From an uncultured Gammaproteobacteria bacterium (lineage in GTDB: Bacteria; Patescibacteriota; Patescibacteriia; UBA11705; JABHMO01), in assembly GCA_964590105.1 (NCBI GenBank), contig CAZPYM010000002.1, positions 26,697-90,696 on the forward strand: a DNA stretch of 64,000 bases, in the 5' to 3' direction. A program made the translations under genes and the position numbers. Position 1 is the first letter of the stretch. Each line of letters begins with the position of its first letter. The notes beneath the pieces were generated by a model. The model was not told the DNA's origin. It ran no database searches and was given only the letters and a program-made list of their open reading frames with translations. Below, piece after piece: positions 3,659 through 57,727 of the stretch.

Positions 3659-6427
3659 ATGCTGGAACAAAACCTCAAACAACTCGACTTCACCCCCAAC
3701 GAAATAAAAGTATATTTGGCTCTTTTCGCGATCGGCAAATCCAGAGCCGGAAAAATAATTGCTTCAACCGGCCTGCATAGAAATCTTGTTTACACTTCTT
3801 TGGAAACATTGGAAAAAAGAAATCTGATAACAAAAGTCTTAGTCAAGGGCGTAGCCGAATTTTCCGCCAATTCACCAACCTCCTTAATTGATGAAATTGA
3901 AAACAAAAAACAGCTCGCCCGTCAGGCGGCCGATGAATTGGAAAAACTCGCCAAACACGAGGAGCGCGACATAAAAATTTACGAAGGCCTCGACGGTATC
4001 AAGCAAGCCCGGTCAAATATTTTGAACTTGCCAAAAGGCAGTGAATTTTTTGTTTTAGGCGCCAGCAAGCTGAGCCAAACTCCGAAACTAGAAAATTTCT
4101 GGCGCGCCTTTCATAAAAAAAGGGAAGCAAAAGGAATAAAACAAAAAACGCTTTATGAAAGCACCACGGATCAAGGGGTTTTGGACAGCATCAAATGGCG
4201 CAATCAACTGCCAAATATGAAAACCAGGTTTTTGCCGTTTGAAATTGATTCCCCCCTTTGGTTTGACTTTGCCGAAGACCACGTCAATCTCGGCCTTGCC
4301 GGCAAAGACCCTCTGACAATCAACATCAAAAGCCGCGATCTGGCCAACGGCTTCAAAAAGTATTTTGAATATTTCTGGGATCAGCGCGTCCGGGTCAAAA
4401 CCGGCGTGGCCGCGGTCAAAGAAGCAATTTACGAACAGCTTAATTCTTTGGCGCCCGGCCAGGAATATCTTATTCTCGGCGCCAAGGGAGCGGATTATCC
4501 CGAGGGCATAGACGAGCTATATGACGAATTCCATACTGACCGCATTAAAAAAGGCGTTGTTACAAAAATGATTTGTTATGAAGAATCTTATGAAGGCCTG
4601 AAAAAACGATTTGAAAAATGCGGCGACATCGAAGGCAAAATTAGTTTTTTGAAAAAATATGCTTCCGGAACCCCGATCCCGATGCAGATCAACATGTACA
4701 AAAATAAAACCTTTTTTATTTTGTACGAAAAAACACCGGTTGTGATTTATTTTGACAACCCGATTATTTTCCAGACCTTTAATAATTATTTTAATGATAT
4801 CTGGAATCAAAAAGTTCATACTCACACCGGATTCAAGGCTCTGCATGACGCATTTTATAATATGATAAACGAACTTGGACCAGGGGAAGAATATTATGTT
4901 CTTGGCACAATGGGTCACGGCCTAGACAAAAAAATTGAAGATTTTTTTGATAAATATCACAACGACCGAATAAAGAAAAAAATTAATTTAAAAATGCTTT
5001 GCTACGAAGAATCATTTACGCCAATTTCTAAACGTTTTCAAAGAGAAGATCCGGAAAATAAATTTACCCAGCTGAAAATTTACCACGAATCTCCGCCCGC
5101 GCCAATGCAAATTGTGCTTTATAAACAAAAAGCTTTTATTACAATTTACGATGGCCACGACACAACCGTAATCCATTTTGACGAACCAAACGCGTACGCC
5201 GGATTTAAAAATCATTTTGACAAAGCCTGGGATCAGCGCGCCAAAACATATGAAGGAGTCGAACAAATAAAAAGACTTTTCATGGAAACCATGGAATTCG
5301 GCAATTATTCTGTTTTTGCCGAAGGCATGAAAATAATTGACGTGCTGGGCGAAGGGTTTTTTACCAGATGGCAAAAAGAAAAACAAAAACGCGGCACTAA
5401 ATCCCGCGGCATTATGAACGCCAGATTCAAAAGCCAGCCGACCGTCACCAAATCGATTACTCAAATGAAATTTATTCCCGGTTACACTGCGCCGGGCGTA
5501 ACTCTGATATTCAAAGACAAAGTGGCCAGCATTAATTTTTCAAAAAATCCGACCGCTTTTTTAATCGAAGACGCTGAAATTGCCCGAAGCAACCAATCCT
5601 ACTTTGATTTATTGTGGAATCAAAAAATTATAACCAGCGAAGGACAAAAAGAAGTTGAGCAACTCTACAACAATCTATTAGAAACAGCCAATTCGCAAGA
5701 TAAAGTTATGGTCTTTGCGGCCAAGCCATCTTCAGAGTCTTCGGCAAATTTCAATCTTGAATGGAATAAAAAAATCAGTAAAAAAACAAAAGGAGTCCGC
5801 CTGCTTTATTACGGCAATACCGGCCGGAACAGAGAGCGAGCTCAGGAATTGACCAAGGTCGGCTGTCAAGCTAAAACCTTGCCAACTGAACAAGAATTGC
5901 CCATCTCAACAATTATCATTGGCGATAAAATTTTAAGCACCGTCTGGAACAAAAAACCAATCGCTTTTTATATGAAGGATGAAACAACGGCCGCGGCTTA
6001 TAAAGAGAATTTTGAATTACTCTGGAATCAGGAAACTTTCGTATTAAAGGGCCTGGACGCGATTGAATATCTTTTTGAAGAAATGCTAGCCGCCGGACAC
6101 GCAGATCTGATCGGCGCCCGCGGATATTTCATTGACCGCCGGCCAGAATTCATTGACGACTGGGAAAAACGAGCCCGGCGCGCTGGCTTTACCATGCGCA
6201 ACATTGTGGATCCCGGACTACGCGGACATCGCATTACAAAATTTCCTTTTGCCAAGACAAAATATACGCTTAACAAAGAATTTTCCAACTTGAGCGTGTT
6301 CTGGATTTTTGGAGACAAATTGGCCATCAGCAACTGGACGGAGAAAGAGCCCTTTGCCATAATCATTGACAACAAACATGTGCACGATATGTATAAGCAA
6401 CAATTTGAATTGTTGTGGAGAAATTAG
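3659..6427 (+). CDS. giant TrmB-like regulator: N-terminal HTH plus about seven tandem TrmB C-terminal-domain-like repeats (922 aa)
   Basis: N-terminus MLEQNLKQLDFTPNEIKVYLALFAIGKSRAGKIIASTGLHRNLVYTSLETLEKRNLI is TrmB HTH-like. A ~115-130 aa module then recurs, each ending in an F/Y-x2-3-W-N/D-Q motif: YFEYFWDQRV, YFNDIWNQKV, HFDKAWDQRA, YFDLLWNQKI, NFNLEWNKKI, NFELLWNQET, QFELLWRN. The single-domain TrmB paralogs here end with the same kind of motif (WWKFMF, FNLAWRGCGK). Confidence 0.8.
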   Translation: MLEQNLKQLDFTPNEIKVYLALFAIGKSRAGKIIASTGLHRNLVYTSLETLEKRNLITKVLVKGVAEFSANSPTSLIDEIENKKQLARQAADELEKLAKHEERDIKIYEGLDGIKQARSNILNLPKGSEFFVLGASKLSQTPKLENFWRAFHKKREAKGIKQKTLYESTTDQGVLDSIKWRNQLPNMKTRFLPFEIDSPLWFDFAEDHVNLGLAGKDPLTINIKSRDLANGFKKYFEYFWDQRVRVKTGVAAVKEAIYEQLNSLAPGQEYLILGAKGADYPEGIDELYDEFHTDRIKKGVVTKMICYEESYEGLKKRFEKCGDIEGKISFLKKYASGTPIPMQINMYKNKTFFILYEKTPVVIYFDNPIIFQTFNNYFNDIWNQKVHTHTGFKALHDAFYNMINELGPGEEYYVLGTMGHGLDKKIEDFFDKYHNDRIKKKINLKMLCYEESFTPISKRFQREDPENKFTQLKIYHESPPAPMQIVLYKQKAFITIYDGHDTTVIHFDEPNAYAGFKNHFDKAWDQRAKTYEGVEQIKRLFMETMEFGNYSVFAEGMKIIDVLGEGFFTRWQKEKQKRGTKSRGIMNARFKSQPTVTKSITQMKFIPGYTAPGVTLIFKDKVASINFSKNPTAFLIEDAEIARSNQSYFDLLWNQKIITSEGQKEVEQLYNNLLETANSQDKVMVFAAKPSSESSANFNLEWNKKISKKTKGVRLLYYGNTGRNRERAQELTKVGCQAKTLPTEQELPISTIIIGDKILSTVWNKKPIAFYMKDETTAAAYKENFELLWNQETFVLKGLDAIEYLFEEMLAAGHADLIGARGYFIDRRPEFIDDWEKRARRAGFTMRNIVDPGLRGHRITKFPFAKTKYTLNKEFSNLSVFWIFGDKLAISNWTEKEPFAIIIDNKHVHDMYKQQFELLWRN

Positions 6428-7000: not shown

Positions 7001-8452
7001 TTATTTCAAATGATAATAAAACTTTTCCATCAGGGTCTTCTTTGGCATTAACAAACAAAAGCCCGTGCTGACCGCCACAATAAATAGTGTCGCGCCTACA
7101 ATCCAGACTGGATTGTCAATTATATTACTGTAAACAAACAATGGGATTCCGATTACAAACGCACTCAATACTCCCCAAAAAACTCCCTTTTCACTTAGTC
7201 GTTCCCAATACAGACTCAAAACAGTCGGTACCATGATACAGGCGGCAACGGTATTAAACACCCACCACAAATGCTTCAAGCCAAAACCAGGAATATACAA
7301 AGCGCCGAGCGCAACTAATAAACCAAGAGACGTGATTCCAACCATTGCCAGGCGAGCTGATCGAATCGACCGGCCATCAGATTGATTTTTAACCACATCC
7401 GTAACCCAAAGAGAGCTGGCGGCTGACAAACCTGAATCAAGAGTTGAACTCAAACCGCACAAAAGCATTATCACAAACAAAAGCACTGCTCCCGCCGGCA
7501 ATAAATTGGCTACTGTCTGCACGCCGATCATAGAGACGTCCACTCCCGCCGGCAAACTAATTCCAAGCGCTGGATTGGCGCCAAGAAATCCCAGAGTTGA
7601 AAGTGCGATCGGAACTATTCCAAATAGAATCGCGCCAAAAACAAACGATTTAACAAGCTTTGTTTTTTTAATGGCAAATGCCCTCTGCCAATACTGCTGG
7701 TCGGAAATCGCTCCGGCAATGAGGCCGATTGAGGTGACAATTCCAAAAGAAAAAGCCACGCCCGGATCAAAAATATTTTTTATTCCGGCTAAACCACCAA
7801 AGCCCGCGCTAATCGCGCTAAATCCGCCGGCCGCTGACCAGACCCACGGCAAAACTATTGCGCCAATCGTAAAAATCATAGCCAGCTGAACAAAGTCAGT
7901 AATAATTGAAGCTTTTAATCCGGAAACCAAAGTGTACACCAAAGCAATTACCGCTAGGATCGGCATTACAATTGTCAAAGGAATTCCGGTTAACATTAAG
8001 ACCAAGCTTCCACCCGCAAAAAGCTGAACTGTCACGGCCATTAGCTGATAAAGAAAATACGGAAACAAGTAAACCTTATGAACGCGTTCACTTTGCAATT
8101 TAAACTTAATATACTGCGGCAAAGTATAGCCCTCGGGCAAACGTTCGCGAATCTTTGGCGCTAGAAAGGCAAACAGAGCCAAAGCAATTACATTGGGCAA
8201 AGTAAACCAGAAAATTCCAGCCAAACCTTTTTCATATGCCATTTGAACTGAAACAAATAAGGCCGGCGCCCAAATCCAGGAGGCGGCAATACTTGATCCG
8301 CCAAAGATCCAACCAACTTTTCGGTTGGCAACTAAAAAACCTTCTTTTGAATTGTCTTTTTGTAGCCTGGCAAAAACATAAGTGATTGCCAGCATAGCTA
8401 ATCCGAAAATTGCTAGAAATAGATAGCCGGTTGTTGATGATACGAATGTCAT
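7001..8452 (-). CDS. sodium:solute symporter family (SSS) transporter
   Basis: 483 aa with about 13 TM segments. The N-terminal region ...FLVANRKVGWIFGGSSIAASWIWAPALFVSVQMAYEKGLAGIFWFTL... is typical of SSF/PutP/PanF-like proteins. Confidence 0.8.
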   Translation of the reverse strand: MTFVSSTTGYLFLAIFGLAMLAITYVFARLQKDNSKEGFLVANRKVGWIFGGSSIAASWIWAPALFVSVQMAYEKGLAGIFWFTLPNVIALALFAFLAPKIRERLPEGYTLPQYIKFKLQSERVHKVYLFPYFLYQLMAVTVQLFAGGSLVLMLTGIPLTIVMPILAVIALVYTLVSGLKASIITDFVQLAMIFTIGAIVLPWVWSAAGGFSAISAGFGGLAGIKNIFDPGVAFSFGIVTSIGLIAGAISDQQYWQRAFAIKKTKLVKSFVFGAILFGIVPIALSTLGFLGANPALGISLPAGVDVSMIGVQTVANLLPAGAVLLFVIMLLCGLSSTLDSGLSAASSLWVTDVVKNQSDGRSIRSARLAMVGITSLGLLVALGALYIPGFGLKHLWWVFNTVAACIMVPTVLSLYWERLSEKGVFWGVLSAFVIGIPLFVYSNIIDNPVWIVGATLFIVAVSTGFCLLMPKKTLMEKFYYHLK

Positions 8453-9100: not shown

Positions 9101-9847
9101 ATGCTAATAAAAACTCTTCAGGAAATCGGACTTTCTCCAAACGAAGCCAAAATATATGAAGCTCTTTTGGAGCTGAAACAAGCCGGCGTCGGCACGATTT
9201 CCAGCCATTCGAAAATACACCGAAGAAATGTTTACGACACAATCTCCCGCCTGGTTGACAAGGGTCTGATCTTCCCGGTCATCGGCAAAGGAGAGAATAA
9301 ATATTCACCGGTTGACCCGGGAAAACTTCTGGAATTAGTCAAAGAAAAGGAAACAAGTCTACTCTCCATCCTGCCACTCATGAAACAAAAATATGAGGAG
9401 CGCAAAACTCCGCAGGAAGCTTATATTTATCGCGGCGTTGAAGGATTCAAAAATTACATGCGCGATATTTTGAAAGAAGGGCAGGATGTTTATTTTATCG
9501 GCGCCAAGCTGGGCTGGCTGGACCCGAGGATCAAAACATTTTTGAACAATTTTTTAACCCTGGCCAAGAAAAAGAAAATCAAATTCCACCACATCTTTGA
9601 CACGGAAGTAAAAGAAAAAACTCCTGCCAATGAATTAGCTGAGCTCGGCCCGAATCATCGCTTCATGCCCAAAGAATTTTCCACGGTTTCCGCCGCTGAT
9701 ATTTTCGGCGACTATGTTGTCACCTTTACCGGATTAAATTATAAAAAGATTGATGACGACGTGACTTTATTTGTCCTGCGCGACAAGGATCTGGCTGACA
9801 GTTACCGCACCTGGTGGAAATTTATGTTTAATAATTGTAATAAATAA
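9101..9847 (+). CDS. TrmB-family transcriptional regulator
   Basis: MLIKTLQEIGLSPNEAKIYEALLELKQAGVGTISSHSKIHRRNVYDTISRLVDKGLI. 248 aa, typical size, C-terminal YRTWWKFMF motif. Confidence 0.8.
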   Translation: MLIKTLQEIGLSPNEAKIYEALLELKQAGVGTISSHSKIHRRNVYDTISRLVDKGLIFPVIGKGENKYSPVDPGKLLELVKEKETSLLSILPLMKQKYEERKTPQEAYIYRGVEGFKNYMRDILKEGQDVYFIGAKLGWLDPRIKTFLNNFLTLAKKKKIKFHHIFDTEVKEKTPANELAELGPNHRFMPKEFSTVSAADIFGDYVVTFTGLNYKKIDDDVTLFVLRDKDLADSYRTWWKFMFNNCNK

Positions 9848-9852
9848 TTTTA

Positions 9853-11576
9853 TGCTAAAAAAAATCATCTTCGTTTCAATCTGCCTGATTTTTCTTTTTC
9901 CCAATCTGACTTCAGCCCGAGAAAATGTTTACGATTGGTATATCCAGAATTTTTATACCAAAATTACGGTTAATCAGGATTCTTCTTTAATTATTGAAGA
10001 GCAAATCACGGCCGACTGCGGTAATGGCAATGACAAACACGGCATTTTTCGGGTCTTGCCGACGCAAACCAAAACTCCGGACGGCACGATCAAAACTCCC
10101 ATTGAGTTAATTAAAATTACCGACTTTCAAGGCCAACCATATAATTACCAAACCATTCGCGGGAATAATACCCTAACCTGGAAGATCGGCAATCCGGACA
10201 CATCCGTAAAAGGCGTTAACACCTATTTAATTGTTTACAAAGTAAAAAATACTGTCCAATTTAATAATTCCGAATTTGATGAATTTTACTGGAACCTGCT
10301 TGGCAACTTCTGGGATCTAGAAATTGACAACTTTACGGCCGACATTATTTTTCAATCAGCCATCAATCAAGACAATACCAAAATTGATTACTACGCCGGC
10401 AACCTGGGCTCAAAAGACAAAACAACCGCCGGCTATTCCTGGCTCAATAAAAACACACTGCGCTTCGAGTCCAATTCAATATTCTACAAAAGCCAAGGTC
10501 TAACTACCTCTGTCACTTTTCCAAAAAATATTCTTCAGCCGACCCGACTTAGTTTATGGGAGAAGTTAAATACATATTTTTTCTTTTGGCCGTTCATTAT
10601 CCCCGTCATTATATTTATACTTTGCTTTTTGGTCTGGATCCGCTTTGGCAAAGATCCAAAACACGGCAAAACCATTATTGCGCTTTATGAACCGCCAAAA
10701 GGTTTAACTCCGGCAGAAATCGGCTCAATCCATCAGGAAGGAACATTTAACGAAAGGCTGATAACCGCGACGATTATTAACCTGGCAGTCAACGGTTATA
10801 TTACCCTTGAACAAATCTCTGAAAAAAAGAAATTCAGCATAACCAAAACCAAGAACGATTTCAAAATAACGAGATTAAACAAAGAGCCGCAAGCTTTATC
10901 GTCTTTGGAAAAATTAATTCTGGACAATCTTTTGGATCAACAACCGGAAATAACTTTATCAGCCATACAAAAAACATTTCCCAAAAAGATTAAGGGGATT
11001 TCAAAACAAATCCAAACTGCGCTGATTGAAAAGGGTTATTTTGCCAAAAAGGGTTTCACCCTTAAGCCGATTTTTATAGGCATAGGCGTTGTAATCGGAT
11101 TTATTTCATTTGCCCACATAGAAAATAATTGGCTCTGGGGGCTGGCCGGGGTTTTATCCGCGCTTTCCATATTAATCTTCGGACTGCTCATGGCCCAAAA
11201 AACTCCGAAAGGAGCGGAAGTTCAATGGGAGATTAAAGGATTTAAACATTACATGGATGTAGCGGAAAAGCATAGGCAGGAATTTTATGAAAAAGAAAAT
11301 ATCTTTGAAAAGTTTTTACCGTTTGCCATTGCCTTTGGTATGACAAAACAATGGATTAACAAAATGAAACAGATTTACGGCGAAGACTTTTTCGCCAACT
11401 ACGCGCCCGCCTGGTACATTGGCTCGACAATGGGCGGCTTTGACGCTGACTCTCTGAACAGCAGCCTGACCAGCATTTCCAATGCTGTTTCGCAAAGCAT
11501 GGGCACATCGTCCGGCTCGGGCGGCAGTGGATTTTCCGGCGGCGGCGGCGGCGGTGGTGGAGGCGGCGGCTGGTAA
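9853..11576 (+). CDS. DUF2207-like membrane protein with C-terminal poly-Gly tail
   Basis: Signal peptide MLKKIIFVSICLIFLFPNLTSA, a large extracytoplasmic domain, TM helices in the middle, and a C-terminus SGSGGSGFSGGGGGGGGGGGW. This architecture is characteristic of DUF2207. The track ORF starts earlier at 9771 by TTG read-through. Confidence 0.65.
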
Positions 11577-38612: not shown

Positions 38613-39116
38613 TTATTTCTTGCTTTCAACCTTCAATTTATAGCTATTGGCCGCGCAGATCGCCGTAGCCAAGGCGTCAGCCGCATCATCCGGTTTTGGA
38701 ATCTGTTTTAAATTGAGCAAAGCTTTTACCATTTGCTGCATTTGACCTTTTTCCGCCCGGCCATAGCCGGTTATTGCCTGTTTTATCTGCAGCGGAGTAA
38801 ATTCAACCACCTCTTTTCCCGCTTCAACCGCGGTCAGGAGAATTACACCACGCGCCTGCCCGACTTTAAGCGCGGTTTTAACGTTTTTAAAGAAAAACAG
38901 CTCTTCCACCGCCACCAAATCCGGCTGATATTTTTTTATTATTGATTTCAAATCCTTACTTAAATATTTCAGCCGCTGAATAAATTCATCCTCCTGTCCG
39001 GTTTTAATCACGCCATAATCCAGGCATTTCATTTTTGAACCCTCAACTTCAATCACGCCGAAACCGGTTAGACCGTAACCAGGGTCAATTCCGAGGATTG
39101 TGCGTTGCTTTCGCAT
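38613..39116 (-). CDS. ruvC: Holliday junction resolvase RuvC
   Basis: ILGIDPGYGLTGFGVIE...LVAVEELFFFKNVKTALKVGQARG...DAADALATAI. Confidence 0.9.
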   Translation of the reverse strand: MRKQRTILGIDPGYGLTGFGVIEVEGSKMKCLDYGVIKTGQEDEFIQRLKYLSKDLKSIIKKYQPDLVAVEELFFFKNVKTALKVGQARGVILLTAVEAGKEVVEFTPLQIKQAITGYGRAEKGQMQQMVKALLNLKQIPKPDDAADALATAICAANSYKLKVESKK

Positions 39117-39227: not shown

Positions 39228-39944
39228 TTAATCCACGTTAACATAAACTGAATTAATATCGTCTTGCTCTTCCAGTATTTCAACAATATTCTGAATTTTT
39301 TCACTGATTTCATCACTCGCGCTTTGCTTTTCCTTTGCCACCCATTCCATTTCAGCGTATGCTAATTTTAAACTCTTTTGCTCAAGCTGTTTTTTAATTT
39401 TTTCAAAATTGGCGAACCCGGAATAAATTGTCAGTCCGCCATCTTCTTCCATAACATCATCCGCGCCGCTGTCAATCAATTCCAAAATCAGTTCATCTTT
39501 ATCTTTTATTTGATCACCCTGTAAATGAATTACCCCCTTGTGTTCAAACATCCATTTGACTGAATTTTGCGCGCCGAGCGAACCGCCATATTTTGACAAA
39601 ATCGCTCTGACTTCCGGAGTCGTGCGATTTTTGTTGTCGGTAACGCCCTCGACGAGAATGGCAATTCCGCCCGGTCCGAATCCTTCATACAAAACCTCTT
39701 CAATTATAGCTCCGCCCAATTCCCCCGTACCTCTTTTGACTGCCTTTTCGATATTGTCTTTCGGCATGTTGACACTTTTGGCTTTTTCAATGGCGGTAAA
39801 CAAAGAAAAGTTCATTTCCGGATCACCACCCCTTTTCGCGGCAATTGAAATATTGTGCGACAACTTGGTAAAAGCATTCGCCCTCTTGGAATCAACCGCG
39901 TCTTTGCGGCGTTTGGTTGTTGCCCATTTGGAATGACCGGACAT
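39228..39944 (-). CDS. YebC/PmpR-family DNA-binding regulatory protein
   Basis: MSGHSKWATTKRRKDAVDSKRANAFTKL is the hallmark N-terminus. Confidence 0.9.
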   Translation of the reverse strand: MSGHSKWATTKRRKDAVDSKRANAFTKLSHNISIAAKRGGDPEMNFSLFTAIEKAKSVNMPKDNIEKAVKRGTGELGGAIIEEVLYEGFGPGGIAILVEGVTDNKNRTTPEVRAILSKYGGSLGAQNSVKWMFEHKGVIHLQGDQIKDKDELILELIDSGADDVMEEDGGLTIYSGFANFEKIKKQLEQKSLKLAYAEMEWVAKEKQSASDEISEKIQNIVEILEEQDDINSVYVNVD

Positions 39945-39956
39945 ACGATTTAGAAA

Positions 39957-40040
39957 AATTACAAATTATGCGCCCAAGGCGCATCCGCCCATGGCGGACA
40001 AATAACAAATTACAAACAATAAAGCGGAAATTATAAAAAA
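39957..40040 (-). repeat. ~85-nt twin-hairpin dispersed repeat, copy 1 (inverted orientation)
   Basis: Its reverse complement reads ttataatttccgctttattgtttgtaatttgttatttgtccgccatgggcggatgcgccttgggcgcataatttgtaattt, almost identical to 41375..41500. Confidence 0.8.
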
Positions 40041-40066
40041 TAGTCAATATTCCAAACGTTTGTGAC

Positions 40067-40258
40067 TTATCGCCAATATTCATTACTTAACTTATTTAAC
40101 GCAACAATAATACCAAATCCGACGGAAAAAATCAAGGCAAAAAGCCGCTCAATAAAAACATGCTCCATATCCAATTTCCAACTTCCAAACAGCTTTCCGC
40201 ATACCGCGTACCAACTTCTAGCCCCAAACTGTGTATAAGTTAATTGCTTTATTAACAT
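40067..40258 (-). CDS. small hydrophobic ORF (63 aa)
   Basis: ORF only. Lies inside the region bracketed by the inverted repeats. Confidence 0.25.
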   Translation of the reverse strand: MLIKQLTYTQFGARSWYAVCGKLFGSWKLDMEHVFIERLFALIFSVGFGIIVALNKLSNEYWR

Positions 40259-40313
40259 ACGTTTGATAAGTTAAAAATAAGCGAGTGTGAAATAATTCAA
40301 AACAAAAATAAAT

Positions 40314-41324
40314 ATGGAAGAATTGCGCCGACAATTTGACAAAAGCAATCTTCACGAGATAATCGCCGATCTGCCAAAGCAATTTAATCAAGCTTTTAAA
40401 GAAATTGAAGTTAAAATAAATTCCGATACAAAAAAAATTATTTTCTGCGGGCTGGGCGGATCCGCTCTGCCGGCCAATTTGCTGAAAACTTTTTTATCAG
40501 TCACAAAATCATCTTTTAATATTCCCATAAAAATCAACCGCGACTATACTCTGCCTAATCTTGTTGACCAGAGCTGGTGCGGTTTTTTTGATTCCTATTC
40601 CGGAAACACGGAAGAAACTCTGGCCGCGCTGGCAGAAGCTGCAGCCCGCGGAATGAAACAAATAATAATTCTGGCGCATACCGGAAAGCTCAAGCAAATT
40701 GCGCTTGAAAAAGGCTACCAGCTGATCGAATTGCCGGACACGAGCCAGCCTAGGATGTCATATGGCTACGTTGTCGGTGCCATGCTCAAAGTTTTTCAAA
40801 ATTCAGGACTGCTTGATTTAAATATTCCCGAACTAAGCAAGGACATTGAAGCGGCATTATCAATTAATTCTGAAGTTGAAGAGCAGGGTCAAATGCTCGC
40901 TGAATCAATCAAGGGAAAAGTTCCGATTATCTATACTTCAAATATCTGGAAGTATGTGGCCATGGTCTGGAAAATAAATTTTAATGAAAACACCAAAACG
41001 CAGAGCTTTTGGAATGTTTTTCCGGAATTAAATCACAATGAAATGGTCGGTTACACCAATTTAGTTGGCGAATACAAAGTAATAATAATAAAAGATCTAT
41101 CCGATCATCCTCGCGTCCAGAAACGAATGGACATATTTGAAAATATTTTGGGCGATAAATTAAATGCTCAAATTATAACCATGCGCGGCGGATCGCCTTT
41201 TTACAAATTATTAACTTCACTCATGCTGGGACTCTGGAGCGCCTATTATCTCGCCTTGCTAAATCAAGTCGATCCAACGCCCGTTGACTTGGTGGAAGAA
41301 TTCAAAAAACTAATGACGGATTAA
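40314..41324 (+). CDS. pgi: bifunctional phosphoglucose/phosphomannose isomerase (archaeal-type SIS-domain PGI/PMI)
   Basis: About 336 aa, IIFCGLGGSALPANLLKTFL SIS motif, typical size for the PGI/PMI family. Confidence 0.75.
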   Translation: MEELRRQFDKSNLHEIIADLPKQFNQAFKEIEVKINSDTKKIIFCGLGGSALPANLLKTFLSVTKSSFNIPIKINRDYTLPNLVDQSWCGFFDSYSGNTEETLAALAEAAARGMKQIIILAHTGKLKQIALEKGYQLIELPDTSQPRMSYGYVVGAMLKVFQNSGLLDLNIPELSKDIEAALSINSEVEEQGQMLAESIKGKVPIIYTSNIWKYVAMVWKINFNENTKTQSFWNVFPELNHNEMVGYTNLVGEYKVIIIKDLSDHPRVQKRMDIFENILGDKLNAQIITMRGGSPFYKLLTSLMLGLWSAYYLALLNQVDPTPVDLVEEFKKLMTD

Positions 41325-41340
41325 GTTGCCCATTGAAAAC

Positions 41341-41500
41341 TTGTCCCAAAGGTATCCTCTTGTGATAGTTTGTAATTTCCGCTTTATTGTTTGTCCCGAA
41401 GGGCTCCTCTTGTGCTAATTTGTAATTTCCGCTTTATTGTTTGTAATTTGTTATTGGTCCGCCATAGGCGGATGCGCCTTGGGCGCACAATTTGTAATTT
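41341..41500 (+). repeat. tandem ~52-nt duplication followed by copy 2 of the twin-hairpin repeat
   Basis: ttgtcccaaaggtatcctcttgtgatagtttgtaatttccgctttattgtttg, then tcccgaagggctcctcttgtgctaatttgtaatttccgctttattgtttg, then taatttgttattggtccgccataggcggatgcgccttgggcgcacaatttgtaattt. Confidence 0.8.
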
Positions 41501-41613
41501 ACTGTTTGTCAGGGGGCTCACGCCTCTTTTCAATATACCAAAAGCTGCCCTTATCCATGCTTGAAGGGCAGCTTTTTTATTTACGCTAATTTAATTTCTA
41601 ATTAAACCCTTAA

Positions 41614-42535: not shown

Positions 42536-42592
42536 ATAATTTGTTATTTGTCCGCCATAGGCGGATGCGCTTTGGGCGCATAATTTGTAATT
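42536..42592 (+). repeat. twin-hairpin repeat, copy 3 (partial), between pilin paralogs 2 and 3
   Basis: ataatttgttatttgtccgccataggcggatgcgctttgggcgcataatttgtaatttcc. Confidence 0.8.
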
Positions 42593-42595
42593 TCC

Positions 42596-48003: not shown

Positions 48004-48203
48004 AAATTTTTAAATAAATTACAAATTACAAACAATAAAACAGAAAGCACAAAGAAAATTATTCTAATTACTCTAATTATTTTAATTGACCTAAATAAAT
48101 CCCAATGACTCAATTATTCTAAATACTAAATTCGGGATTTGGAACTTAGAAATTATTTAGAATAATTTACCTGATAAATACTCTATGTTCCATGCCCTAT
48201 GCG

Positions 48204-57206: not shown

Positions 57207-57296
57207 TGGCGGAGAGGGAGGGATTCGAACCCTCGACGCCCTTGCGGACGTAACGGTTTTCGAGACCGTCCCATTCAACCACTCTGGCACCTCTCC
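57207..57296 (-). tRNA. tRNA-Ser (anticodon CGA), type II, CCA encoded
   Basis: Minus-strand RNA: GGAGAGG-UG-CCAGAGUGGUUGAAUGGGACGG-UCUCGAAAACCGU(anticodon loop CUCGAAA)-UACGUCCGCAAGGGCGUC(long variable arm)-GAGGGUUCGAAUCCCUC-CCUCUCC-G-CCA. Confidence 0.85.
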
Positions 57297-57353: not shown

Positions 57354-57626
57354 CTAACTTCTTTTGTTTCTTCTTTCCTGGATATATCTTTCAAGTAAAT
57401 ATCCCCGCCTTTCTCTTCCTTTTCCAGTTTTTAGAAACTTCTCTTCTCTCAATGCGTCTTCCTTGTAAGTAAACGCCCCATAATATACCAATTCCCACGG
57501 AATTCCTCTTGCAGTAAATGGTACTAGCCCACGATTATGCTGCTTCAACCGTGAGCTAATATCTTGAGAATAACCAGTATAAAATTTTCCCAATTTTTCA
57601 CTGAATAACATATAAACAAAATACAT
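57354..57626 (-). CDS. small GIY-YIG nuclease-domain protein (90 aa)
   Basis: MYFVYMLFSEKLGKFYTGYSQDISSRLKQHN is the GIY-(x10)-YIG / R...QHN motif set of the GIY-YIG superfamily. Confidence 0.75.
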   Translation of the reverse strand: MYFVYMLFSEKLGKFYTGYSQDISSRLKQHNRGLVPFTARGIPWELVYYGAFTYKEDALREEKFLKTGKGRERRGYLLERYIQERRNKRS

Positions 57627-57643
57627 ATTTTACTCCGCTTTTC

Positions 57644-57673
57644 CCCGCCCAAGGCGGGTGCGCCTAGGGCGCA
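57644..57673 (+). repeat. twin-hairpin element related to the dispersed repeat family
   Basis: cccgcccaaggcgggtgcgcctagggcgca forms two adjacent GC hairpins like ccgccataggcgg-atgcgccttgggcgca. Confidence 0.6.
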
Positions 57674-57678
57674 GAGAG

Positions 57679-57727
57679 CGGCCCATTCAACCCCTGCCCG
57701 CCTTTGGTGGAACTCTGGCACGCCTCC
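57679..57727 (-). other. degenerate partial copy of the 5' part of tRNA-Ser
   Basis: Minus-strand GGAGGCGUGCCAGAGU[19-nt insert]GGUUGAAUGGGCCGC. This is identical to tRNA-Ser at GUGCCAGAGU and GGUUGAAUGGG, but there is no anticodon or T arm. Confidence 0.6.

Follow-up and report, generated by a model that had tools for sequence, protein, structure and literature searches.

Repeats around pgi in a patescibacterial contig share a 30-nt twin hairpin, a probable miniature mobile element linked to GIY-YIG nuclease genes at tRNA-Ser

The repeats described here can be likened to repetitive extragenic palindromic (REP) elements and bacterial interspersed mosaic elements (BIMEs), to Rickettsia palindromic elements (RPEs), to the small dispersed repeats (SDRs) of cyanobacteria and to the double-hairpin and GC-cluster elements of mitochondria. 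REPs are, as far as is known, species-specific. RPEs, as Ogata and co-workers are said to have described them in 2000, are ~100-150 nt long and confined to Rickettsia, and SDRs, called "very small mobile repeated elements" in work attributed to Elhai and co-workers (2008), are reportedly ~20-30 nt long, hairpin-associated and found in nested insertions. The double-hairpin elements of fungal mitochondria and the GC clusters of yeast, in work attributed to Paquin and co-workers, are said to be GC-rich mini-elements of one or two hairpins in AT-rich genomes; they reportedly lie in spacers and variable parts of genes, in genomes with mobile endonuclease open reading frames (ORFs) and partial gene duplications. 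We analyzed a 64-kb stretch of a patescibacterial genome (64,000 nt of contig CAZPYM010000002.1, assembly GCA_964590105.1; hereafter, the window), in which inverted repeats stand on either side of pgi, a gene of the bacterial PGI/PMI type. Their common core, which we call X, is a 30-nt twin hairpin that recurs in several phyla, in spacers, tRNA-derived sequences and protein genes, and often beside a gene for a GIY-YIG nuclease. We consider it probable, at roughly 60%, that the repeats are a miniature nonautonomous palindromic mobile element with X as its core, possibly mobilized by, or protecting, a GIY-YIG/tRNA-Ser cassette.

X resembles REPs and REPtrons in being a short GC-rich palindrome in many dispersed copies, often paired and within the 20 to 40 nt expected of such elements, and it resembles REPtrons in having a partner nuclease or transposase gene flanked by repeats, here in X-GIY-X layouts. 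A survey of REPs gives these elements a conserved GTAG or CGTC head tetranucleotide, at one end of the palindrome (PMC3733652). In contrast, the hairpins of X begin with YCCGCC or TGCGCC and have no GTAG/CGTC head, copies are not extragenic only, the partner is a Slx1-like GIY-YIG nuclease and not an HUH Y1 protein, and the identical 30-mer is common to several phyla. The last point also separates X from RPEs, as does its length of 30 nt and its linked nuclease cassette. SDRs share with X a case of nested insertion (locus L044), whereas sequence and hosts differ, and we know of no SDRs with twin hairpins, a GIY-YIG link or a location in tRNA gene fragments. Like miniature inverted-repeat transposable elements (MITEs), X is nonautonomous, short, structured, multicopy and preferentially placed in AT-rich targets, but it lacks terminal inverted repeats derived from insertion sequences (IS) and a fixed-length target duplication, and it is several-fold shorter than typical MITEs. 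An earlier note on this DNA, made from its letters, had spoken of REP/MITE-like behavior; a dispersed palindromic family that behaves like selfish DNA of this type is indeed what we see, although it lacks defining traits of both REPs and MITEs. The term double-hairpin element is in use in mitochondrial genomics, as a literature search showed, but those elements are organellar and unrelated in sequence, while the hosts of X are free-living or episymbiotic bacteria, and the gene paired with X lies at tRNA-Ser genes and encodes a stand-alone UPF0213 nuclease. In this limited search we found no description of the 30-mer, its tRNA-loop insertions or its nuclease linkage, and a prior description may exist.

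The conserved core is exactly 30 nt, YCCGCC-NNA-GGCGGR followed by TGCGCC-TNG-GGCGCA, that is, two adjacent hairpins (A and B) of 15 nt, each with a 6-bp stem and a 3-nt loop. Both hairpins of the window copies fold on either strand, in agreement with the two adjacent GC-rich hairpins that the earlier note had seen in each copy, and they are the part of the element that matters. The same note had proposed a unit of ~85 nt; what is shared and conserved is the 30-nt core, and the AT-rich arms around it are lineage specific. Copies were gathered with the pattern CCGCC-N3-GGCGG-N-TGCGC-N3-GGGCGCA, which fixes 22 bases and is matched by all four cores of the window. Among 127 unique copies, the base preceding the pattern pairs with pattern position 14 (T-A in 65, C-G in 53, other in 9), so the element is 30 nt long and each of its two stems has 6 bp; the loops read NNA and TNG, and the flank consensus is ATTC^X^GAAC. 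A covariance model and a structural scan of the same loci also recovered variants with compensatory stem changes (TCAGCC..GGCTGA, TCACCC..GGGTGA and CTCGCC..GGCGAG), palindromic A-A twins and one nested hairpin. The covariation analysis suggested earlier turned out positive, both for the outer pair and for the variant stems; hairpin formation, and not sequence alone, is conserved and under selection. C-G outer pairs are overrepresented among copies in tRNA contexts and T-A pairs among solo copies and those within ORFs (odds ratio 5.1, p=4e-5), and the copies of the window are split in the same way.

Nested and partial forms were also seen. At L044 (7212-7261), a second A-type hairpin lies within the hairpin-A loop of X, giving a structure of 50 nt whose two junctions each have an AGAG repeat. 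Single 15-nt hairpins, of the same type as a degenerate one in the tRNA-Ser fragment of the window, occur near X in L052, L065, L079, L105 and L133.

The exact-pattern scan covered one representative genome for each species and gave at least 117 loci with X. The outcome that the earlier note would have taken as a refutation, namely these copies and no others, is clearly not what we see, as the core occurs across phyla. Among the matches listed, most are Patescibacteria (Magasanik-, Uhr-, Falkow-, Buchanan-, Nomura-, Wolfe-, Moran-, Dojka-, Doudna- and Komeilibacteria, and Saccharibacteria), and other hosts are Acidobacteriota, including contigs of 655-769 kb and long closed contigs, with some Bacteroidota and Ignavibacteriae. 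A metagenome scan for the lineage-specific right junction of the window copies gave two matches, both already known and one of them the window copy next to YebC, and two copies in one genome (L094 and L097) have GTAATTCG-X-TAATTT in common. Carriage by phages is unsupported, as 2.9 million viral contigs gave 0 matches to X.

In the window, a repeat search returned the inverted pair c1/c2 (Table 1), 82 nt long and 95% complementary, with 1381 nt between the arms. Neither half of the element turned up in any of 100 dinucleotide-preserving shuffles, whereas 2-4 matches were observed, so the near-identical inverted copies of the earlier note are well founded. The tandem duplication that it had placed before the second copy is also real, with 90% identity and a period of 50 nt instead of 52. 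The three partial copies reported alongside exist as well, but they are of unlike kinds. BLAST of the repeat region against the window identified one as a shorter full copy (c3; 94.7% over 57 nt), the second as an arm-only copy (19/19 at 48021-48039) and the third as a core-only copy (20/22 at 57652-57673). The copies are spaced 1.1-15 kb apart, with four cores per 64 kb. Copy c1 lies between ORF63 and the start codon of YebC (39944), its final TTTGTAATTT box stopping 11 nt before the ATG, and the core of c3 is abutted on both sides by a 13-nt direct repeat, TAATTTGT(T/A)ATTT. The arm-only copy matches the left arm of c1 and c2 at 29/33 positions and then continues as though 'TATTGG-X-C' were absent. 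The arm therefore exists without the core, and what lies upstream of the galU-like gene is an arm without an occupant or else a copy from which X has been lost. The PGI of the window was found on nine public contigs; the six that were compared come from different samples and match the window at 100% across the repeat region. As the locus is identical in six independent public assemblies, the repeats are not an assembly artifact.

TABLE 1 Features of the window discussed in the text
Feature	Position	Strand	Remarks
RuvC gene	38613-39116	-	Pfam
YebC/TACO1 gene	39228-39944	-	Pfam
Copy c1	39956..40037	-	82-nt composite: AT-rich arms with three TTTGTAATTT-type boxes, and core
Core X of c1	39969..39998	-	TCCGCC ATG GGCGGA + TGCGCC TTG GGCGCA (T-A outer-pair type)
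63-aa ORF (ORF63)	40067-40258	-	no Pfam match
Bacterial PGI/PMI SIS-domain gene (pgi)	40314-41324	+	Pfam
Two 50-nt tandem units	41341..41440	+	41341-41390 and 41391-41440; each terminates in left-arm sequence TTTGTAATTTCCGCTTTATTGT, and the second leads into c2
Copy c2	41419..41500	+	82-nt composite; 3' of the pgi/pmi SIS-domain gene, 5' of the real terminator
Core X of c2	41458..41487	+	TCCGCC ATA GGCGGA + TGCGCC TTG GGCGCA
Bidirectional intrinsic-terminator-like hairpin	41540..41578	.	between pgi and pilin array; z = -4.7; not part of the repeat
Copy c3	42537..42593	+	near arms and core; between two minus-strand T4SS-pilin genes, antisense to both
Core X of c3	42551..42580	+	one hairpin-B stem mismatch (TGCGCT..GGCGCA)
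Arm-only copy	48016..48053	-	upstream of galU-like gene (ATG at 48003-48001)
Intact tRNA-Ser(CGA)	57207..57296	-	the fragment's uninterrupted counterpart; 57 nt 3' of the GIY-YIG ORF
90-aa stand-alone GIY-YIG nuclease gene (UPF0213/bacterial Slx1-like)	57354..57626	-	Pfam GIY-YIG
tRNA-Ser(CGA)-like 5' fragment, acceptor to anticodon stem	57633..57727	-	X in anticodon loop
Core X, C-G outer-pair type	57644..57673	+	CCCGCC CAA GGCGGG + TGCGCC TAG GGCGCA; core only, with its own loops and outer pair

About half of the copies of X have tRNA-like surroundings, with such flanks at 71 of the 136. In 48 of them, the tRNA similarity runs through the insertion point once X is removed (T-arm region in 34, anticodon loop in 8, D loop in 6), and 46 of these 48 have X in the same orientation relative to the tRNA. 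Pairs of filled and empty sites show how precise these insertions are. In the window, affine-gap alignment of tRNA-Ser(CGA) with the 5' fragment upstream shows 30 nt added at CTC^GAAA; on the minus strand, X separates C34 from G35 in the fragment's anticodon loop. Comparison of a tRNA with its adjacent duplicate reveals a T-loop insertion, GGTTC^GAATCC, at L023 and L056, and a D-loop insertion at L007, while at L129 and L130 a 43-nt 5' part of the tRNA is repeated, identical except for X. In all these pairs, the insertion is precise, measures 30 nt and has no target duplication, with TC^GA as the site in tRNA loops. Removal of X brings back a tRNA detectable by ARAGORN in only 1 of 136 cases, so the X-bearing tRNA sequences are fragments or disabled duplicates beside intact genes. 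A functional tRNA with an intron can be rejected as the general case, since ARAGORN, run with and without X, almost never finds these tRNA-like sequences intact.

The fourth core of the window belongs to a module with the tRNA-Ser(CGA) fragment, the GIY-YIG nuclease gene, which begins 17 nt after the X-bearing fragment, and the intact tRNA-Ser(CGA). The only solved relatives of the nuclease are the UPF0213 proteins 1zg2 and 1ywl, described as members of the bacterial Slx1 family and thus as relatives of a structure-specific endonuclease (PMC1564403). Among the loci selected for X, 27 of the 31 GIY-YIG ORFs are no more than about 700 nt from a copy. The module takes two layouts, fragment-X-ORF-tRNA or tRNA-ORF-(T arm with X + 3' end); the latter is that of Acidobacteria and occurs in tandem in L053 and L064. 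X stands on both sides of the GIY-YIG ORF, 372-430 nt apart, in L053, L064, L077, L084 and L105. To offset the selection for X, we also sampled from the nuclease side, taking six homologs of the window protein (46-70% identical). A full X was found 6-31 nt from the ORF in four of the six, and single hairpins in both loops of a duplicated tRNA-Arg in another one; five of the six have an adjacent tRNA (Ser-CGA twice, Ser-UGA, Ser-GGA and Arg-ACG). The order of tRNA-Ser fragment, ORF and intact tRNA-Ser recurs in L129, L130, L131 and L132.

This arrangement is reminiscent of free-standing GIY-YIG homing endonuclease genes such as those of the T4 Seg family, where SegB is located in the T4 tRNA gene region. 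A small ORF sits at tRNA genes and duplicated tRNA segments stand at the boundary, as expected if the cassette brings homology to its target, and the module at 57.2-57.7 kb has both the ORF at a conserved host gene and the duplicated target at its boundary. On the other hand, the nuclease here is a minimal Slx1-like domain with no DNA-binding extension, the cassette has a conserved twin hairpin of which dozens of solo copies also exist, and homing of the cassette is putative. A hand count gave ~9 differences between the tRNA-Ser fragment and the resident tRNA-Ser, including compensatory changes in the anticodon stem, and ~6 between the fragment and the tRNA-Ser of L130 (1775-1865); this is a weak hint that the fragment may have arrived with the cassette and is not a displaced piece of the resident gene. 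The D loop of the fragment contains a further insertion, a degenerate single hairpin of 19 nt (TCCACCAAAGGCGGGCAGG; 57693-57711, minus strand).

Long ORFs of AT-rich genomes also contain X, in frame and as 10 extra codons, and none of the ORF copies contains a stop codon. It falls within the Pfam domain alignment of TsaD, of a class I aminoacyl-tRNA synthetase (ValRS-like), of a Mur ligase and of a helicase of UvrD/AddA type. The copy in MiaA is placed at the C-terminal edge of its domain, and those in two Elp3-like genes come behind Radical_SAM_C, in the linker. The orientation and reading phase of X differ among these seven protein-coding genes. In TsaD and ValRS, alignment to solved homologs shows the residues encoded by X as an extra loop. 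A filled and an empty site are provided by the Elp3-like radical-SAM pair L046 and L057, in which 'CAQGASASGG' corresponds in BLASTP to an exact gap of 10 residues (FLSY|EDSK versus FLSF|EDTK), a precise 30-nt insertion at TAT^GAA with no duplication. In the UvrD/AddA-like gene of L094 (4043-7168), X is followed within the ORF by a GC-rich palindrome, GGGCGGG TTTTAAA CCCGCCC (around 4540-4625), and the alignment of the helicase N domain is ~40 residues longer than the Pfam profile, which suggests possible stacked insertions.

Copies in tRNA loops and essential genes, self-contained and structured on either strand, could alternatively be read as an intervening sequence at the RNA level, a mini-intron or an excised hairpin cut from tRNAs and mRNAs. 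We find this very improbable. The length is a multiple of three and ORF copies are free of stop codons, which fits translation and not removal; the X-bearing tRNA sequences are fragments beside intact copies; and there is no ribozyme or Rfam match, nor, on inspection, a bulge-helix-bulge motif formed with the flanks. Rfam at the gathering threshold, applied to the window and 16 loci, reported only tRNA, RNase P and a group I intron, with nothing at X, and even at E<=10 the region 39.9-42.7 kb had no match at X. The family of small structured RNAs considered in the earlier note is likewise unlikely, given the missing Rfam match, the presence of both orientations and the copies inside ORFs.

As for the two copies around pgi, the earlier note had seen in them the ends of a composite or MITE-like unit, which would carry pgi and ORF63. 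The closely matching inverted arms are what speaks for it. However, three relatives (PGI 73%, 68% and 66% identical, the closest labeled Kuenenbacteria) keep the order RuvC-YebC-pgi-pilin, and in none of them does a strict X follow pgi or lie in a pilin spacer. Because these relatives keep the gene order without a strict X, pgi was not brought in by the repeats, and because X is missing there, it is not ancestral at the pgi and pilin sites. Furthermore, there is no target duplication or direct repeat immediately outside the inverted pair and no transposase between the arms, and both c3 and the arm-only copy are solitary. The search for target-site duplications that had been recommended thus came out empty around pgi, as it did for the insertions in tRNA loops and in the Elp3-like genes. 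Taken together, a composite unit is hardly credible, and the inverted arrangement is, from what the sequences tell, probably the outcome of two independent or duplicated insertions into AT-rich spacers.

Another explanation is that X is useful to the host, as a protein-binding or processing site, a hairpin pair that stabilizes or terminates mRNA, or a nucleoid or gyrase site. Some features fit such a role: the stems are near-invariant across phyla with a covarying outer pair, a TTTGTAATTT box lies 11-12 nt before the start codons of YebC and galU (in c1 and the arm-only copy), and a degenerate twin hairpin of L126 is in a comparable position, 57 nt upstream of YebC. A consensus terminator scan also marks hairpin B with its T-rich tail in c1 and c3. 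Yet it gave 4 sites against 3.4 expected by shuffle, and X is not needed for pgi termination because a separate conserved terminator lies downstream of c2. Relative to the genes beside them, copies can be sense (c1) or antisense (c3), seven protein-coding genes contain copies in either orientation and varied phases, disabled tRNA fragments contain copies too, the positions are not kept in the syntenic relatives, and Rfam has no match. A host function is therefore unlikely as the reason for the element, and effects on neighboring genes (weak termination, RNA stabilization, promoter spacing at YebC) are possible as by-products.

The terminator-like hairpin between pgi and the pilin array has counterparts in L126 (~7150-7190), L127 (~7040-7075) and L128 (~7110-7150), with compensatory stem changes. 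Its loop (TTATCCATGCTTGA) is near-invariant in the four genomes, more conserved than a plain terminator requires, and the hairpin may be a small RNA or a protein-binding loop.

The AT-rich arms of c1-c3 are built from TTTGTAATTT boxes. Exact matches to the box number 12 in the window, with seven in c1-c3 and the tandem units, two upstream of the galU-like gene and three elsewhere; two of the three outlying boxes were inspected, one being a terminator tail and the other a coding site. Across the window, TTTGTAATTT is not a general upstream motif, and a sigma-70 promoter scan found nothing promoter-like in the arms. The intergenic DNA of the relatives is full of short AT-rich tandem repeats, e.g., CTTGTCTTG about 10 times (L127 ~5790-5930; L126 5900-6000 and 7011-7080), and GTAAAAG/CTTTTAC arrays bracket pgi there in inverted orientation with no twin hairpin. 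The arms of the window element may belong to this tandem-repeat phenomenon of the clade.

Flanking direct repeats were compared with a control in the 60 copies that are not in T loops and whose loci are below 50% GC; 18 exceeded the 95th percentile of the control, with 3 expected, while inverted flanks around X showed no enrichment in the same copies. The direct repeats are 11-19 nt long, usually abut X and often have a 44-nt period, c3 being of this kind. They could represent variable target duplications, insertion into the AT-rich tandem repeats of the clade or arms mobilized together with X.

The hairpins of X can form by extrusion from single-stranded DNA, in a cruciform, or in RNA made from either strand. 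If the repeats are a mobile element of the kind proposed, X would insert precisely and with no target duplication, preferring (A)TT[C/G]^[G/A]A, into AT-rich spacers, loops of tRNA-derived sequences and protein-coding genes, in the last case as 10 codons in frame. In the lineage of the window, it would travel with, or sit in, AT-rich arms of ~10-50 nt, giving the 57-82-nt copies c1-c3, which, being near-identical, would have been copied or homogenized recently. The fourth copy is part of the conserved module of X-bearing tRNA-Ser fragment, GIY-YIG nuclease gene and intact tRNA-Ser; X would be the cis-acting partner of this selfish nuclease cassette, and the solo copies c1-c3 would be nonautonomous derivatives. 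From the linkage, we infer the enzyme that moves X and the manner of its movement, for which two variants can be envisaged. X could be the structure that the nuclease recognizes and mobilizes in trans, as in a REPtron, or it could destroy the nuclease target in the cassette's own tRNA copy and spread by break repair with co-conversion of the flanks, which would also account for the shared arms. A bolder version makes X and the UPF0213/Slx1-like GIY-YIG gene an unrecognized analog of REPtrons, where a minimal structure-specific nuclease, and not an HUH transposase, would recognize the twin hairpin, seed at tRNA-Ser, spread solo pairs to spacers, copies of tRNAs and genes for essential proteins, and move horizontally between phyla (Patescibacteria, Acidobacteriota, Bacteroidota); we regard this as possible and put it forward tentatively.

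Several points weigh against a mobile element coupled to the cassette. Insertion polymorphism was not seen among the six identical assemblies of the population, and the nearest relatives (66-73% PGI identity) are too distant to provide a clean empty site for c1-c3. The linkage to the nuclease runs through tRNA fragments, which might be neutral landing sites, rich in targets, made by the cassette, and the near-invariant stems across phyla could reflect a conserved protein-binding function in the host. About 30% of the solo copies have direct repeats and the tRNA and ORF insertions do not, and no single nameable mechanism covers both. In addition, the family was gathered by an exact pattern and is biased accordingly, roughly 6-13 of the matches lie in very GC-rich loci with unpaired outer bases and may be due to chance, and several taxonomic labels of metagenome-assembled genomes are doubtful.

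The precise insertion near a short preferred sequence, with no target duplication, and the twin similar hairpins would also suit a REP/BIME-type element moved on single-stranded hairpins by a REP-associated tyrosine transposase (RAYT) or an HUH (Y1) transposase of the IS200/IS605 type, the GIY-YIG gene being incidental. Such traits are typical of single-strand 'peel and paste' transposition (IS608, RAYTs), and the orientation bias toward the asymmetric tRNA target points the same way. We nevertheless hold this to be quite improbable, as the hairpins have no GTAG or CGTC head, copies are not limited to extragenic DNA and the gene repeatedly found beside X, also in the sample taken from the nuclease side, is the GIY-YIG nuclease; no Y1 transposase was noticed, although no systematic search for one was made.

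Genomes of the candidate phyla radiation (CPR)/Patescibacteria are small and thought to be streamlined. If the proposed mobility is true, a selfish element of 30 nt that is tolerated in copies of tRNAs and in essential enzymes would rank with the smallest bacterial mobile units known. X would be a practical confounder as well, adding 10-residue loops to proteins and breaking tRNA detection. Its linkage offers a testable function for the widespread UPF0213 'hypothetical endonuclease' family of unknown role and points to tRNA-Ser genes as the home site of this family, and an exact 30-mer common to distant phyla is a possible marker of horizontal exchange.

Last, we note some other traits of the window and of the related loci. 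Beyond the pgi region comes a minus-strand array of TrbC/VirB2-type pilin genes (Pfam), with at least eight 'T4SS_pilin' (type IV secretion system pilin) paralogs between 41614 and 45179. A DNA-uptake sequence, which the array would suggest, was rejected, as the copy number of X is too low and its sequence is common to several phyla and not species specific. L128 has a variant twin hairpin (TCTGCC AAA GGCAGA + CCCGCC TCT GGCGGG) at about codons 8-17 of two pilin paralogs (7956-7985 and 9833-9862). ORF63 is called as a gene in some assemblies only, the relatives have an uncalled spacer of similar length, and the ORF may be spurious. A gene of the 23S_rRNA_IVP/bAvd family lies beside RuvC-YebC in L126 (878-1243) and L127 (4415-4777) and is absent at the equivalent position of the window. 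At a contig end, L012 (6900-7150) contains a tandem array with a 66-nt period, in which a tRNA 3'-end fragment, X and 16 nt are repeated at least four times. Neither this array, whose 'spacers' are identical, nor the window copies, 1.1-15 kb apart, can be taken for a clustered regularly interspaced short palindromic repeat (CRISPR) array. The Wolfebacteria contig of L077 has a group I intron (RF00028, 77 bits) in a tRNA cluster at 4600-4839, together with two X-bearing tRNA-Ser fragments and a GIY-YIG ORF.

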